Shown here one piece after another: positions 59,661 to 64,000 of a DNA stretch of 64,000 nucleotides. Each line of letters begins with the position of its first letter. Position 1 is the first letter of the stretch. The notes below the pieces were generated by a model. That model saw only the letters and a list, made by a program, of their open reading frames with translations, was not told the DNA's origin and did not search any database. The stretch lies in contig CAWHYB010000004.1 of NCBI GenBank assembly GCA_963833555.1, positions 131,844 to 195,843 on the forward strand. The letters are read 5' to 3'. The position numbers were made by a program, and so were the translations under genes. This stretch comes from an uncultured Actinomycetes bacterium (GTDB lineage: Bacteria > Actinomycetota > Thermoleophilia > UBA2241).

Positions 59661-60773
59661 AGGTCGCCTACATCGGCCAGAAGGGCCTGCCCGCGACCTA
59701 CGGCGGCGTCGAACGCCACGTCGAAGAGCTGGCGGCGAGGGTCGCGGCCCGGGGGCACCACGTCCTCGTGTACAACCGGGCGCACTACAACCCGTCGGCC
59801 CCCAGGCGGTATCGGGGGGTCGAAGTCGTGACCCTCCCGTCGGTCGCGACCAAGCACCTCGATGCCATCACCCACGTAGTCGTTGTGCACCGCTCACGCC
59901 CTGCGCCAGCGGGCGGACGTCGTCCACTACCACGCCGTCGGTCCCGCGCTGCTGTCGTGGGTCCCGGCTCTCGCGGGCGTCTCCGCGGTGGCCACCGTGC
60001 ACGGTCGTGACTGGCAGCGGCCCAAGTGGGGCGGCGTCGCGACCCTGGCGCTCCGGGCGGGGGAGTGGGTGTCGATGCATGCGCCCGATGAGACGGTCGC
60101 GGTCTCGCGCTCGCTGGCCGACGAGCTGTCGAGCACGTACCGCCGCGCCGTCCACTACATCCCCAACGGCATCACCCTGGAGGCGGACGAGGACCTCGGC
60201 GTCCTGGCCGAGTTCAGTCTCGAACGAGGACGGTACGTCCTGTTCGCCTCGCGCCTCGTGCCCGAGAAGGGGGCGCACTACCTCGTCGAGGCGTGGGAGC
60301 GTCTCGAGACCGGCATGAAGCTGGTTTTGGCGGGCGATTCCAGCTTCAGCGCCGACTATGTGCGGTCCCTGCGGAAGGCGTGCCGGCGGGAGGACGTCAT
60401 CTTCGCCGGGTACATCTTCGGTCCCCGGCTGGCGACGCTGTACCGCGAGGCCGCGCTCTTCGTGCTGCCGTCGGACGTGGAGGGCCTGCCGATCGTGCTC
60501 CTCGAGGCCCTGGGATACGGCACCCCGGTGCTTGCCAGCGACATCGCCCCGAACCGCGAGGTGCTGGACGGCCGGGGGCGTACCTTCAGCGCCGGGGACG
60601 CGCGGGATCTGGGCCGGCAGCTCAAAGCTGCCCTCAATGAGCTGCCGGCGCTTCGCGACGAGGCGAGCGAGGCTGCGTCGGCGATCAGGAGGGTCTACGA
60701 TTGGGAGACCATCGCCGATCAGACGATCGCGCTTTACAAGGCGGCTCTCGACGACCGGGGGCGCCACGACTGA
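59657..60773 (+). pseudogene. GT4-family glycosyltransferase, one frameshift near 59880
   Basis: GTGA overlap. VKVAYIGQKGLPATYGGVERHVEELAARVAARGHHVLVY; VVHYHAVGPALL; FVLPSDVEGLPIVLLEALGYGTPVLASDIAPNREVL. Confidence 0.82.
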
Positions 60774-61825
60774 TGGAGAGAGTGAAGAGAGGCATGACAC
60801 ACACGCTGGGGAGCCCGCTGCCACGTCCGTTGGCGCCCGTCGAGGGCGGACCTGCCGCCGGTGCCGACGCCGAGGTCGGACGCCCGGACGGCGAGACGCT
60901 CCTCTTCGGGATCGCTGGGCTCACCGTGGCGGTCACAGCCGACATGCCGCTGGGCGATGGGACGTTCGCGCCGAAGTTCAGGGCCTTCCGGCTCTACCGA
61001 CCGGAGGGCGAGGTGGTGCGGCTGCACCACCACCTCGGCCTGCCCGCGATCGACGCGGCCGAGCTCGGTGAGCCGGTGCTCGAGAGAGTGCCCTGGGCCA
61101 TCTACCGGCGTGGCGACGACTGGATCTACGTCGGCGTCTCGCCGACGAAAGGCCCTCCCTTGCATCGGGTCGCCGCGTTCTCGGAGGACCACATGAGCGG
61201 CCGCATCTACAGCCCACTGCCGTCGGCCGACGCCTTCACCGGCGGCGGGTTCGGATCGCTCACGCTGTTTCCGACCGACCAGATCGTCCTGGCGCGAGTC
61301 CTCGCCGAACGTCAAGCCTGCTACTTGCACTCCAGCGCAGTCGTGATGGACGGCAGCGGCCTGCTGTTCGTGGGACATTCGGGCGCGGGCAAGTCGACGA
61401 CCGTCCGCCTCGTCGGGTCTGCCGGCGAGGTCCTCTGCGACGACCGCAACATCATCCGCCGGTGGCCCGACGGCTTCCGCGTGCACGGCTCGTGGAGTCA
61501 CGGCGAGGTGCCCACGGTCTCGTCCGCCTCGGCGCCCCTGGCCGCGATCCTGTTCCTGCGGCAGGCGCCGCACAACCGCCTGGTCGAGCTGGCGCCGCGC
61601 GAGGCGGCGACGGCGCTCGCGACCTGCGTCGTGAAGCCGCTCGTGACGGCGGACTGGTGGCGCATGATCCTCGAGCTGGTGGAGCACGCCGTCGCCGAGG
61701 TGCCGTGCTACGCCCTCGAGTTCGACACGAGCGGGCGGGTGGTGCCGCTGCTCCGGGAGCTCGCCTCGAACGGTCACCGGGCGGGCCGGCAGTCCCCGGC
61801 CGGCGAGTCGGGACCGCCGGGATGA
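60773..61825 (+). CDS. HPr-kinase-related P-loop protein (HprK C-terminal-like domain), function unknown
   Basis: TGATG overlap with the upstream GT. GLLFVGHSGAGKSTTVRLVGSAGEVLCDDRNIIRRWPDGFRVHGSW parallels the HprK motif G.SG.GKSE.AL.L...GH.LVADD.V.I. Confidence 0.6.
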   Translation: MERVKRGMTHTLGSPLPRPLAPVEGGPAAGADAEVGRPDGETLLFGIAGLTVAVTADMPLGDGTFAPKFRAFRLYRPEGEVVRLHHHLGLPAIDAAELGEPVLERVPWAIYRRGDDWIYVGVSPTKGPPLHRVAAFSEDHMSGRIYSPLPSADAFTGGGFGSLTLFPTDQIVLARVLAERQACYLHSSAVVMDGSGLLFVGHSGAGKSTTVRLVGSAGEVLCDDRNIIRRWPDGFRVHGSWSHGEVPTVSSASAPLAAILFLRQAPHNRLVELAPREAATALATCVVKPLVTADWWRMILELVEHAVAEVPCYALEFDTSGRVVPLLRELASNGHRAGRQSPAGESGPPG

Positions 61826-62967
61826 GCAGCTACGTCTGCTCCACCACGTCGGGCCTGCCCGGCGGCGCGCTCTGGGCAGGCGGCCGACCCCTGATGGGCC
61901 GGTTCGAGGTCGAGCTCACCGAGCGCTGCAACAACGACTGCGTGCACTGCTACGTCAACCGCCCGGCCGCCGATCGCGCGAGCCGAGATCAGGAGCAGCC
62001 GGCGGCGGCCGTGATCGAACGACTCACCGAGGCCGCCGCCCTCGGCGCGCTGGCCGTCCGCCTCACCGGCGGCGAACCGCTGCTGCGCGACGACTTCCCC
62101 GAGATCTACCTCGCCGCGCGCAGGCTCGGGATGGTGGTCGAGCTGCTCACCAACGCCTGCCTCGTGACCGAGCGCATCGCCACGCTGCTCGAGCGCACCC
62201 CTCCCCTGGAGCCGGTGTCCGTGACCGTGTACGGCATGAGCGAGCGGTCCTACGAAGAGGTGACACGGACGCCGGGCTCCTACCGGCAGATGAGACGCGG
62301 CGTCCAGCGCCTGGCGGAGCGCGGCGTCCGGCTGGCGCTCAAGGGCACCCTGCTGCCGCAGGCGGCAGCGGAGGCCGACGACCTGCGCGAGTGGGCCCGC
62401 GCCCTGCACGCGCCGCCGCCGACGTTCGTGACCTACCTGCACAGCCGGGTGGCCGGTGATGAGCCCGAACGGGGTGGGGCGATCGCCGCCCTGCGGCGAT
62501 CGCCCGACGAGCTCGCCGACTTCTACCTGCGATCGGAGGCGCGCCCGGAGGCCGGCGGGGAGTGGCTGGGTACACGCGGTGAGCAGCTCTTCATCTGCAG
62601 CGCCGGGCAGACGGTCTGCATGGACGCGCGCGGCGATCTTCTGCCCTGCCTGCTCGTCCGGCACCCCGACGTCGTCTACGATCTCTCTCGCGGGAGCCTC
62701 GAGGAGGCGGTGAGCGAGTTCTTCCCGGCCCTGCGTCGCCGGAAGGCGACCGAACGGGCCTACCTCGAGCGCTGCGCCCGCTGCTTTCTCGGCGCCCTGT
62801 GCGAGCAGTGCCCAGCATGGTCGTGGAGCGAGCACGGCACGCTGGACACGCCCGTCGAGTATCTGTGCGAGTGCGCTCACCGCCGGGCGCGAGGCCTCGG
62901 CCTCGTGCCCCCCGGTGAGCGCTCCTGGGAGATGGAGGATCGGCGAGGGAGGTCGATGCGGCGATGA
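61822..62967 (+). CDS. Radical SAM/SPASM-domain peptide/protein-modifying enzyme
   Basis: ATGA overlap. FEVELTERCNNDCVHCYVN (CX3CX2C), RLTGGEPLLRDD. The SPASM-like part reads FICSAGQTVCMDARGDLLPC...CARCFLGALCEQCPAWSW. Confidence 0.8.
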   Translation: MSSYVCSTTSGLPGGALWAGGRPLMGRFEVELTERCNNDCVHCYVNRPAADRASRDQEQPAAAVIERLTEAAALGALAVRLTGGEPLLRDDFPEIYLAARRLGMVVELLTNACLVTERIATLLERTPPLEPVSVTVYGMSERSYEEVTRTPGSYRQMRRGVQRLAERGVRLALKGTLLPQAAAEADDLREWARALHAPPPTFVTYLHSRVAGDEPERGGAIAALRRSPDELADFYLRSEARPEAGGEWLGTRGEQLFICSAGQTVCMDARGDLLPCLLVRHPDVVYDLSRGSLEEAVSEFFPALRRRKATERAYLERCARCFLGALCEQCPAWSWSEHGTLDTPVEYLCECAHRRARGLGLVPPGERSWEMEDRRGRSMRR

Positions 62968-63263: not shown

Positions 63264-63762
63264 CCCACCGCCATCGCTCTACGCTGTGCCCGGCCGGGAC
63301 CTGGCACTCTCGGGGTCCGCGCTGCGCGAGATCCTGGTCGCCGTGCTGCATCGCGGCGGGCGGCTTCGCTTCAGGGCGCGCGGGCTGAGCATGCAGCCCG
63401 ACATCGGCGACGGCGACGTCATCACCGTGGGTCCCGCCACGGGTGCGTGGCTGCGCGTCGGCGATGTGGTCGTCGTCGGCGCGGTCGATTCCGTCATTGT
63501 GCATCGCGTGGTCCAGCGCAGAGGCCTCTCATACCGAGTCCGCGGAGACAACGCGTGGTGCGACGACGGCTGGTTCACGGCCGAGAACGTGATCGGGGTG
63601 GTGACCTGCGTCGAGCGCGAGGGCGTCGAGAGCGGGCTCGGCGGACGTGCTCACCGCCTGCTGCGCGCCGTGGTCAGCAGGCACGCGACCCTGCGCCGCG
63701 CGCGATACGCCTGCCGTCGCCTGGCGCCGTCGCTGCCCGCCGGAAGGAGGCGACATGCATAA
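63250..63762 (+). CDS. S26B (SipW/Sec11/archaeal-type) signal-peptidase-like serine protease
   Basis: GTG start overlapping the PqqD end. ARGLSMQPDIGDGDVITV carries the Ser motif. VIVHRVV has His where S26A/S24 have Lys. RVRGDNAWCDD is a GDN box, compare SipW ..SGSMEP.., ..THRI.., ..KGDNN..D. Confidence 0.65.
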   Translation: MPSLDPPPSLYAVPGRDLALSGSALREILVAVLHRGGRLRFRARGLSMQPDIGDGDVITVGPATGAWLRVGDVVVVGAVDSVIVHRVVQRRGLSYRVRGDNAWCDDGWFTAENVIGVVTCVEREGVESGLGGRAHRLLRAVVSRHATLRRARYACRRLAPSLPAGRRRHA

Positions 63763-64000
63763 CGGACACGTCAGGCATGTCGCCCTGCCCGACCTCGGGC
63801 TCTGGAAGGACGTCATCGGCTCGCGCCGGGTGCCCTTCTCGTTCGACCTCGAGCTGACGGCGCGCTGCAACAACGACTGCCGTCACTGCTGCATCAACCT
63901 GCCGGCCTCCGATCGCACGGCGCGCGCCAGCGAGCTCTCGCTGGCCGAGATCGAGCGCCTCGCCGACGACGCCGTCGAGCTCGGCGCCCTGTGGTGCCTC
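63755..64000 (+). CDS. Second radical SAM(/SPASM) enzyme, N-terminal part; runs off the right edge
   Basis: My own translation from ATG 63755 gives MHNGHVRHVALPDLGLWKDVIGSRRVPFSFDLELTARCNNDCRHCCINLPASDRTARASELSLAEIERLADDAVELGALWCL. It has the same CNNDCxHC cluster motif as 61822..62967 and is not in the ORF track because it is truncated. Confidence 0.75.
   Translation, partial: MHNGHVRHVALPDLGLWKDVIGSRRVPFSFDLELTARCNNDCRHCCINLPASDRTARASELSLAEIERLADDAVELGALWCL

Follow-up and report, generated by a model that had tools for sequence, protein, structure and literature searches.

The DNA analysed here is a stretch of 64,000 nucleotides (hereafter the window, about 70% G+C) from contig CAWHYB010000004.1 of an uncultured Actinomycetes bacterium of the Thermoleophilia, and its right-hand end carries a gene cassette that very probably directs the biosynthesis of a RiPP, a peptide made on the ribosome and modified after translation. 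Five plus-strand genes follow the last glycosyltransferase gene, which encodes a family 4 enzyme (GT4). The first of them (60773-61825, 350 amino acids) encodes ScmC, a P-loop protein with the fold of HPr kinase/phosphorylase (HprK/P) and phosphoenolpyruvate carboxykinase (PEPCK) and a predicted peptide Ser/Thr kinase. It is followed by the genes for rSAM1, a radical S-adenosylmethionine (SAM) enzyme of the SPASM type (61822-62967, 381 amino acids; Radical_SAM, 1.6e-19), for a PqqD-family RiPP recognition element (RRE; 62964-63263, 99 amino acids; Pfam PqqD), for an S26B-type (Ser/His) peptidase that is the predicted leader peptidase (63250-63762, 170 amino acids; Peptidase_S24) and for a second radical-SAM/SPASM enzyme, rSAM2, of which the window holds the first 82 codons, with the N-terminal motif CNNDCRHC, before the gene runs off its end (63755-64000).

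The genes of this cassette are translationally coupled. The GT4 stop and the ScmC start overlap in TGATG (60771-60775), the ScmC/rSAM1 and rSAM1/PqqD junctions are both ATGA (61822-61825 and 62964-62967), the GTG start of the peptidase sits 14 nt within the PqqD gene, and the peptidase and rSAM2 genes meet at ATGCATAA (63755-62). The G+C content at third codon positions (GC3) of the cassette frames is 0.84-0.89, and the same gene order recurs in over 40 archaeal and bacterial loci, the latter of several phyla. The GC3 values, the strength of the domain matches and the recurring gene order rule out a chance arrangement. An earlier note on this DNA, made from the letters and a list of open reading frames (ORFs), had described five translationally coupled genes forming a RiPP-type maturation cassette. 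The genes proved intact, their coordinates and all junctions were confirmed, and the assignment was borne out.

The same note had seen no substrate gene, a statement that is right for 60.7-64.0 kb: a six-frame translation of the whole window, searched with a profile of 17 precursors of the family, gave no match (best E 0.8). As a description of the cassette it fails, because the window simply ends before the precursor gene. The last 60 bases of the window had no exact DNA match among metagenome contigs, exact searches with the PqqD, ScmC and rSAM1 proteins gave no contig either, and an exact match of the peptidase protein retrieved a 2,187-bp Logan contig (L011, run ERR12035932) that is 100% identical to window positions 63132-64000 (an overlap of 869 bp) and adds 1,318 nt. 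As the note had stated, the cassette continues beyond the window. The Logan contig completes rSAM2 (373 amino acids, gene end at window-equivalent 64876) and adds, 125 nt after it and 1,002 nt past the window end, a plus-strand gene for a 57-residue, Cys-containing precursor, MGRDWQKPQLVVLGRGTPEESVLQVCKNQSDAGPVASGPCHVIGVPPKGACIGVTGT (window-equivalent 65002-65175, that is, 1871-2044 of the contig). This precursor matches the profile of the family precursors at E 6e-13 and is identical to a recorded protein, P0139, found on a 250,409-bp contig; the window ScmC (P0001) and the window GT4 (P0241) are likewise recorded on a 250,409-bp contig. The idea of a cassette without substrate is therefore abandoned, and the extension past 64 kb that the note itself had proposed has solved its puzzle in a mundane way, the gene lying just off the window. 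Across these 4.4 kb the five core genes, the remainder of rSAM2 and the precursor gene show unbroken frames, with all catalytic motifs intact.

The precursor family was initially discovered by tblastn and ORF clustering in eight related loci from GTDB genomes of Methanothrix, Anaerolineales, Aminicenantes and Eubacteriales, where a conserved small-ORF family adjoins the same enzymes. Each related locus long enough to be used has at least one family precursor beside these enzymes. When 21 members were aligned, W5, P8, L10, L23, C26, C40 and C51 proved invariant and R15, E20, V22 and K27 nearly so, which gives a leader of the form WxxPxL…EExVLxxCK, a variable core rich in Ser and Thr, and three invariant Cys residues in the precursor. 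A profile search of 5.8 billion proteins returned 304 precursors, all annotated as hypothetical and none with a Pfam domain. Of the best 120 of these 304, 104 end in Ser, 15 in Thr and one in Lys, to be compared with an overall Ser+Thr frequency of 16%, and in 118 the last Cys lies 6-8 residues before the C-terminus. The precursor of the window locus ends in Thr; most of its relatives end in Ser. No NCBIfam or Pfam model recognises the precursors, which show only a weak N-terminal likeness to the paeninodin leader model (E 0.2-1). Paralogues with differing cores occur in single loci (six in L002, about 11 in L020), which is what one would expect of secreted natural products, not of a cofactor. 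In the metagenome locus L020 the roughly 11 different precursor genes are scattered among ScmC, rSAM1 and rSAM2 genes (8962-16597). In locus L003, three additional copies of the 3' end of rSAM1 (13287-13571, 15028-15209 and 15578-15739), which share 48-71% identity with the window enzyme at residues 283-377, each stand just before a precursor copy; this points to a tandem duplication of a unit made of the rSAM1 end plus precursor. One of the precursor copies (15289-15471) is interrupted.

The first protein of the cassette had been described in the earlier note as an HprK-like P-loop protein, and this description is supported by structure prediction. An AlphaFold2 model of ScmC, built on 45 homologues (pLDDT 86, pTM 0.84), was compared with the PDB by Foldseek, and at E<=1e-3 essentially all matches were ATP-dependent PEPCK and HprK/P structures; the match to 1jb1 has a TM-score of 0.54 (target-normalised) and an rmsd of 4.4 Å. 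The motifs GHSxAGKST, LCDDR and WxHG are invariant in the 45 homologues, the window protein having GHSGAGKST. Set against the known HprK/P enzymes, these residues are the Walker A motif and, after it at the same spacing, the pair of catalytic Asp residues. In addition to the fold, ScmC thus has the features of HprK/P kinases, that is, a Walker A of the form GxSGxGKS and a DD pair about 16-17 residues after the Lys. A search of PDB sequences found HprK at E 0.14 with the single sequence and 0.006 with the profile, and the Pfam model Hpr_kinase_C gave 17.3 bits against a threshold of 33.3, so that ScmC is kin to HprK/P at the level of fold and is not a member of that family. A beta-rich N-terminal domain occupies residues 43-165 of the model.

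Both radical-SAM proteins carry the cysteines expected from their names. Invariant positions are C36/40/43 plus C259, 276, 318, 321, 327, 330 and 349 in 11 orthologues of rSAM1, and C38/42/45 plus C268, 286, 329, 332, 338, 341 and 360 in 12 orthologues of rSAM2, which correspond to a CX3CX2C motif and a seven-Cys SPASM motif in each enzyme, even though the Pfam SPASM model falls short of E 0.01 on rSAM1. The two radical-SAM/SPASM enzymes of the earlier note therefore stand, the SPASM cysteines whose absence on alignment it had named as a possible objection being all in place. The 99-residue protein was likewise rightly assigned as a PqqD-type RRE. It scores 58.7 bits (E 7e-16) on the Pfam model PqqD (PF05402, gathering score 23.4), and its best solved relative is the lasso peptide RRE TbiB1 (5v1u; residues 9-97 aligned, E 7.6e-5), the PqqD structures 5sxy and 3g2b also being matched; a single-sequence AlphaFold2 model (pLDDT 68) gave no meaningful Foldseek matches. 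The peptidase scores 26.4 bits on Peptidase_S24 (Pfam threshold 23.3) and 42.8 on the archaeal signal peptidase I model TIGR02228 (cut-off 51.85). It keeps with its orthologues the Ser of GxSMxP, the His of VHR (xHRV box) and GDN, the arrangement of S26B (SipW/Sec11-type) enzymes, and by these motifs it is a putative S26B peptidase. No hydrophobic N-terminal anchor was evident by inspection of its sequence, and a PDB sequence search found no solved relative of it.

A metagenome scan carried out with the ScmC alignment yielded 65 further loci, and the ScmC profile was run against 1.84 billion representatives at 50% identity, of which 390 match at E<=1e-30, a number that rises to 5,119 when E<=1e-10 is allowed. 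When all parts were mapped onto all loci, two cassette architectures were found. In class A the ScmC proteins are 40-60% identical to that of the window and the order is ScmC (which a further radical-SAM protein, rSAMX, may precede, often as a fusion), rSAM1, PqqD, S26 peptidase and rSAM2, with interspersed precursors and often a nucleotidyltransferase of the NTP_transf_5 family and an ATP-binding cassette (ABC) transporter downstream. In class B, which comes mostly from soil, the ScmC proteins are 27-38% identical to that of the window and the order is PqqD, rSAM, precursor, ScmC and S26 peptidase, with a single radical-SAM/SPASM enzyme; its precursors follow the pattern …YxxPxL…SLRPEEAVLGHCK…C…C…GS and also have a terminal Ser. 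Class B examples are L041-L073, mostly from soil metagenomes, such as L049 (5851-9336) and L054 (5694-8919). The window cassette belongs to class A, and its closest relative is L012, with identical gene order, 59-67% identity and a 56-residue precursor ending in …GVTGT. Members of the family occur in several phyla of bacteria and in archaea of the genus Methanothrix, and the window copy is one ordinary member of it.

Many ScmC homologues are fused to a radical-SAM domain (rSAMX::ScmC, about 575-680 amino acids), and in L001-4 and L014 the peptidase is fused to a GNAT domain; the window cassette has neither fusion. The fused proteins of the family include those at 6704-7726 and 8918-10879 of L001 and at 12818-13840 of L014, the 340-residue S26-GNAT form being found in Methanothrix and in a Thermoleophilia metagenome-assembled genome (MAG). 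In the MAG contig L019 (GCA_018262835.1, 279-8086) two ScmC cassettes lie side by side, with two ScmC, two PqqD, two S24-like peptidase and three radical-SAM genes in total.

Among curated families, the profile scores place the window proteins nearest to the SynChlorMet (SCM) cassette (TIGR04248-04251, PF27840) and not to the GeoRSP or HprK-related kinase B systems. The SCM cassette has the same four protein types, that is, the HprK-like ScmC, a homologue of PqqD and a pair of SPASM radical-SAM enzymes that resemble PqqE, and its models ScmC, ScmD, ScmE and ScmF are the best or near-best NCBIfam matches of the window proteins. PF27840.1 (ScmC) is the precomputed Pfam label given to P0001, whose sequence is 100% identical to that of the window ScmC. 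However, the equivalog cut-offs were all missed widely: ScmC scores 44.8 bits on its best NCBIfam match, the ScmC model TIGR04249 (cut-off 125), the PqqD protein 28.1 on ScmD (cut-off 100), rSAM1 75 on ScmE, its best match, and 60 on ScmF, and rSAM2 67 and 67.8 on the same two models (cut-off 400 each). Eleven other ScmC-family members gave 0-33 bits on TIGR04249, and none of these 11, drawn from both classes, attained the cut-off of TIGR04249 or of TIGR04355. The window family also differs from SCM in the S26B-type peptidase, the often present third radical-SAM enzyme and a clearly identifiable precursor family. The GeoRSP/HprK-related kinase B system, which the earlier note had suggested as a likeness, also combines a PqqD-family chaperone and a SPASM radical-SAM enzyme with an HprK-like P-loop protein, but the profile check goes against it, the window proteins missing all three cut-offs by far (28.6 of 100 on TIGR04302, 46.6 of 400 on TIGR04303 and 20.8 of 200 on TIGR04355) and lying much nearer to the SCM models.

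Other known systems share single elements with the cassette. Sactipeptide and ranthipeptide (SCIFF-type) pathways also apply an RRE and SPASM radical-SAM enzymes to Cys-containing precursors, and the sactipeptide models StsB and AlbA are among the matches, below cut-off; their precursors are of another family, and the present cassettes have two or three separate maturases and add the kinase-like protein and the S26B peptidase. SodX, the maturation protease of Ni-superoxide dismutase, removes an N-terminal pro-peptide and resembles the peptidase in its S26 family likeness (31.7 bits on TIGR02754 for the L014 orthologue, cut-off 63.25), but its substrate and context are unrelated. A literature search found no paper on the SCM cassette, which is known only from comparative genomics as far as could be found, and none describing the present ScmC/radical-SAM peptide system. 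An RRE-dependent radical-SAM RiPP cassette is of a known kind; its enzyme combination is uncharacterised, and the precursor family is absent from Pfam, NCBIfam and the literature searched.

The PqqD protein and the PqqE-like SPASM enzymes also raise the possibility of a redox cofactor of the pyrroloquinoline quinone (PQQ) or mycofactocin type, in which the peptide would be a sacrificial scaffold whose C-terminal residue becomes a small cofactor, decorated by the GT4 as MftF does. The mycofactocin maturase model MftC aligns nearly full-length with rSAM1 (71 bits) and rSAM2 (76.9 bits), the C-terminal residue is near-invariant as in MftA and PqqA, and the GT4 gene is translationally coupled upstream. 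These scores are nevertheless far under the cut-offs (265 for MftC; 55.9 against 381 for PqqE), genes like PqqB/C or MftD/E are found in no locus, and the PqqA and MftA models do not match the window-family precursor, which ends in Ser/Thr. Hypervariable cores, up to about 11 precursor paralogues per locus and ABC or major facilitator superfamily (MFS) exporters beside the cassettes also tell against a cofactor, and the GT4 is part of an exopolysaccharide (EPS) locus that is present in L087 without the cassette. The assignment to PQQ or mycofactocin was rejected, and a cofactor pathway of this type is extremely improbable; the 1,318 nt of added downstream sequence, where the earlier note had thought that a known cofactor pathway might appear, contains none.

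A closer parallel to the RiPP cassette is provided by phosphorylated and phosphoglycosylated lasso peptides such as paeninodin and pseudomycoidin. In these systems the precursors have a [W/Y]xxPxL leader and a C-terminal Ser as here, the PqqD-type RRE and the HprK-like kinase core are common with the ScmC cassettes, and the NTP_transf_5 and ABC-transporter partners are also present in ScmC relatives; in at least 11 loci NTP_transf_5 stands alongside ScmC. In linear lasso precursors the hydroxyl of the C-terminal Ser is phosphorylated by homologues of HPr kinase, and in pseudomycoidin an NTP_transf_5-type nucleotidyltransferase then attaches hexoses (PMC8498205). Lasso precursors of actinobacteria carry YxxPxL as a conserved motif in their leaders, to which the B1 RRE binds (PMC6784204). 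Because leader motif, RRE type, kinase core and terminal hydroxyl residue, and often a nucleotidyltransferase and an ABC exporter, are common to both, ScmC cassettes share tailoring features with lasso systems. One locus of the scan, L074, is a bona fide lasso cluster (6218-10852) with NTP_transf_5, PqqD, an HprK-like kinase, a transglutaminase-like B2 protein and an Asn-synthase-like cyclase, and over the 72-residue catalytic core its kinase and the window ScmC share 38% identity (pairwise E 1e-10, hhalign probability 97%). In contrast, the lasso cyclase (C) and B2 proteins, both present in this control, are absent from the window cassette and from every class-A and class-B locus, where SPASM enzymes, the S26B peptidase and Cys-rich cores take their place. 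In two further loci, candidate kinase-type lasso precursors with a WxxPxL leader and a C-terminal Ser lie at 197-406 of L076 and at 13404-13640 (minus strand) of L084, with the sequences MKKLWEIPFLEHLDLG...DPILDS and ...QWERPMLIQLNSSG...SYGPS, respectively.

The analysis shows which genes are present, what the precursor is, which residues are conserved and which folds the proteins have; the pathway that follows is inferred. The PqqD-type RRE would bind the WxxPxL leader, as the lasso B1 protein binds YxxPxL, and present the peptide to the enzymes. The two SPASM enzymes would cross-link the invariant cysteines intramolecularly, most likely through thioethers of the sactipeptide or ranthipeptide type, and rSAM0, a third radical-SAM/SPASM gene located upstream, could contribute if functional. 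With ATP, ScmC would phosphorylate the hydroxyl of the C-terminal Ser/Thr, in the way that PadeK-type kinases act on lasso precursors, and in relatives the NTP_transf_5 protein may decorate the C-terminal phosphate further. The apparently soluble S26B-type peptidase would cut off the leader near the VLxxCK block, the GNAT domain fused to it in some relatives would acetylate the new N-terminus, and an ABC or MFS transporter such as those seen in relatives would export the product. We hold with good confidence that the cassette is a RiPP biosynthetic cassette of an uncharacterised ScmC-type family, acting on the precursor encoded off the window. For the proposed action of ScmC on the terminal Ser/Thr, argued from the lasso kinases, the chances appear evenly balanced, and the thioether chemistry suggested for the SPASM enzymes by the same kind of analogy could as easily fail as hold. 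That the products form a new RiPP class, cross-linked at Cys by two or three SPASM enzymes, O-phosphorylated at a C-terminal Ser/Thr and phosphoglycosylated in some relatives, is put forward tentatively, as a little short of an even prospect.

ScmC might act otherwise than on the C-terminal residue, either by phosphorylating internal Ser/Thr residues for a lanthionine-like dehydration and Cys addition, or as an ATP-driven scaffold or chaperone of the radical-SAM enzymes, another enzyme then recognising the terminal Ser/Thr. The many rSAMX::ScmC fusions, which suggest a physical coupling of ScmC with radical-SAM enzymes, would suit such a role, as would the Ser/Thr-rich cores and the beta-rich domain at residues 43-165, to which no role has been assigned. 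On the other hand, a lyase or cyclase domain is found in no locus, the P-loop and DD catalytic residues are invariant, the terminal Ser/Thr is besides Cys the sole core feature conserved across both classes, and the kinase-type lasso precursors from the same scan also pair WxxPxL with a C-terminal Ser. A non-terminal role of ScmC is accordingly considered fairly unlikely.

Several observations weigh against the RiPP pathway as outlined. ScmC is a remote relative of HprK/P by similarity (profile E 0.006, TM about 0.5), the peptidase is under its NCBIfam cut-off, and the chemical steps are all drawn by analogy, the products of the family members being uncharacterised. The mycofactocin maturase, an enzyme that decarboxylates the C-terminal residue of its substrate, is among the best full-length NCBIfam alignments of rSAM1 and rSAM2, so that the terminal Ser/Thr could be a target of a radical-SAM enzyme rather than of the kinase. 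The window precursor has a terminal Thr, and that kinases of this class would phosphorylate Thr is a prediction. No NTP_transf_5 or exporter gene was found in the available contig sequence, which extends 143 nt beyond the precursor. Finally, rSAM0 and the GT4 gene upstream are frame-disrupted, and part of the operon may therefore be defective.

If the proposed pathway is true, evolution would have put the kinase, nucleotidyltransferase and RRE tailoring module of paeninodin-type lasso peptides to new use on a scaffold that is not a lasso, and recruited a cytoplasmic homologue of S26B signal peptidases as leader peptidase. The combination of a terminal Ser/Thr, a WxxPxL leader and a shared kinase core provides a hypothesis testable by mass spectrometry. 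A precursor family is now supplied for a large set of ScmC-type cassettes that curated resources list without a peptide, which makes an orphan system known only from comparative genomics approachable by experiment, including in methanogenic archaea, for which, to our knowledge, few RiPPs have been reported.

Upstream of the cassette lies an EPS locus with GT4 genes, a UDP-GlcNAc 2-epimerase, an Ldh_2 dehydrogenase and a minus-strand Wzz/BY-kinase gene. The last of the GT4 genes (59657-60773, plus strand, DUF1972-like; Pfam Glyco_trans_1_4 and Glycos_transf_1) has one frameshift near 59880. Its product is 75-83% identical to the 378-residue GT4 of L018 and L085 and 70% identical to that of L087, and the deposited protein P0241 is a truncated form of 296 residues. 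Immediately before it stands rSAM0 (58631-59654, plus strand), the third radical-SAM/SPASM gene, with the CX3CX2C motif CNAHCVMC. Its orthologue in L018 (299-1318) is intact and encodes 339 amino acids with PF04055 and PF13186; compared with it, rSAM0 is broken into six pieces of 49-84% identity (most 78-84%) in alternating frames, which implies at least five frame changes. The cassette unit may begin upstream with rSAM0 as an accessory gene; its membership is uncertain because it is limited to the window and L018 and absent from L085 and L086.

The attachment of the cassette to the EPS locus had led the earlier note to suggest a protein or glycan-linked peptide as target, and a glycosylated peptide or EPS-associated protein made with the participation of the GT4, and perhaps of rSAM0, has been considered. 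The GT4 stop overlaps the ScmC start, the order rSAM0-GT4-ScmC recurs in L018 and GT4-ScmC in L085 and L086 behind the same Wzz/BY-kinase gene, a Wzc-like kinase adjoins the cassette in L014, EPS-type neighbours are found in L015 and L017, and NTP_transf_5 partners put hexoses on phospho-Ser in pseudomycoidin (PMC8498205). The full order in L085 and L086 is Wzz (minus strand), GT4, ScmC cassette, NTP_transf_5, ABC transporter and cellulase, without rSAM0. However, in L087 the same GT4 closes the same EPS locus and is followed by GT87, GtrA and HAD genes, with no cassette. The GT4, first suspected from the L018 arrangement to be part of the cassette, was for this reason rejected as such; it is the last gene of an EPS locus conserved in the lineage, and the spot behind it, where the cassette sits, is variable. 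The proteins of the EPS flanks are 63-76% identical among the loci compared (the Wzz fragment is just 41% identical to that of L087), whereas the cassette proteins of the same syntenic loci are 41-56% identical and their gene sets differ, as expected of a variable insert. In the closest cassette, L012, an MFS gene stands upstream, and EPS genes are sporadic around class-A loci and absent from all 13 long class-B loci, so that the majority of cassettes lack EPS neighbours. In addition, a dedicated small precursor exists. A target tied to the EPS is quite improbable on this evidence and the suggestion finds no support; judged from synteny, the EPS position is a lineage-specific variable spot with no functional tie to the RiPP cassette.

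Comparison of L087 (9001-12924) with L018 (1315-13564) shows a presence/absence polymorphism at this site. In L087 the GT4 gene is directly followed by GT87, GtrA and HAD genes, all on the minus strand. Between GT4 and the minus-strand GtrA and HAD genes of L018 there are, in addition, the ScmC cassette, NTP_transf_5, an ABC transporter, a cellulase and a 468-residue gene. The comparison suggests an insertion or deletion hot-spot.

The frame disruptions near the cassette bear on whether the locus could be a decaying, inactive remnant. Besides the five or more frame changes in rSAM0, the frameshift in GT4 and the truncated P0241, the minus-strand Wzz/BY-kinase gene is split over two frames at about 56.9-58.15 kb, and the sites do not coincide with long homopolymers, so that homopolymer runs offer no explanation. 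Elsewhere in the window many other stretches are without clean ORFs and many genes look split. The disruptions in rSAM0, GT4 and the Wzz/BY-kinase gene fall within 56100-60773 and none within the cassette, whose core genes and precursor are unbroken with intact catalytic motifs, as noted above. The frame-shifted pieces remain mostly 63-84% identical to intact orthologues (49% in a single overlapping piece at the C-terminus) and show no sign of accelerated substitution, a picture more often given by assembly indels than by decay, and L085 has a cassette without rSAM0. An inactive remnant is therefore regarded as very unlikely.

Farther upstream, the EPS run of the window (44884-52271) also includes an unusual series of genes, for an aldolase like RraA (47894-48802), a protein of the ATP-grasp type (48803-49930), a 450-residue protein without Pfam match (49818-51167) and the Ldh_2 dehydrogenase (51186-52271). 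These genes lie amid GT4 genes and a UDP-GlcNAc 2-epimerase fragment, and Ldh_2 is syntenic with L087, as are the epimerase and GT4 genes downstream of it.

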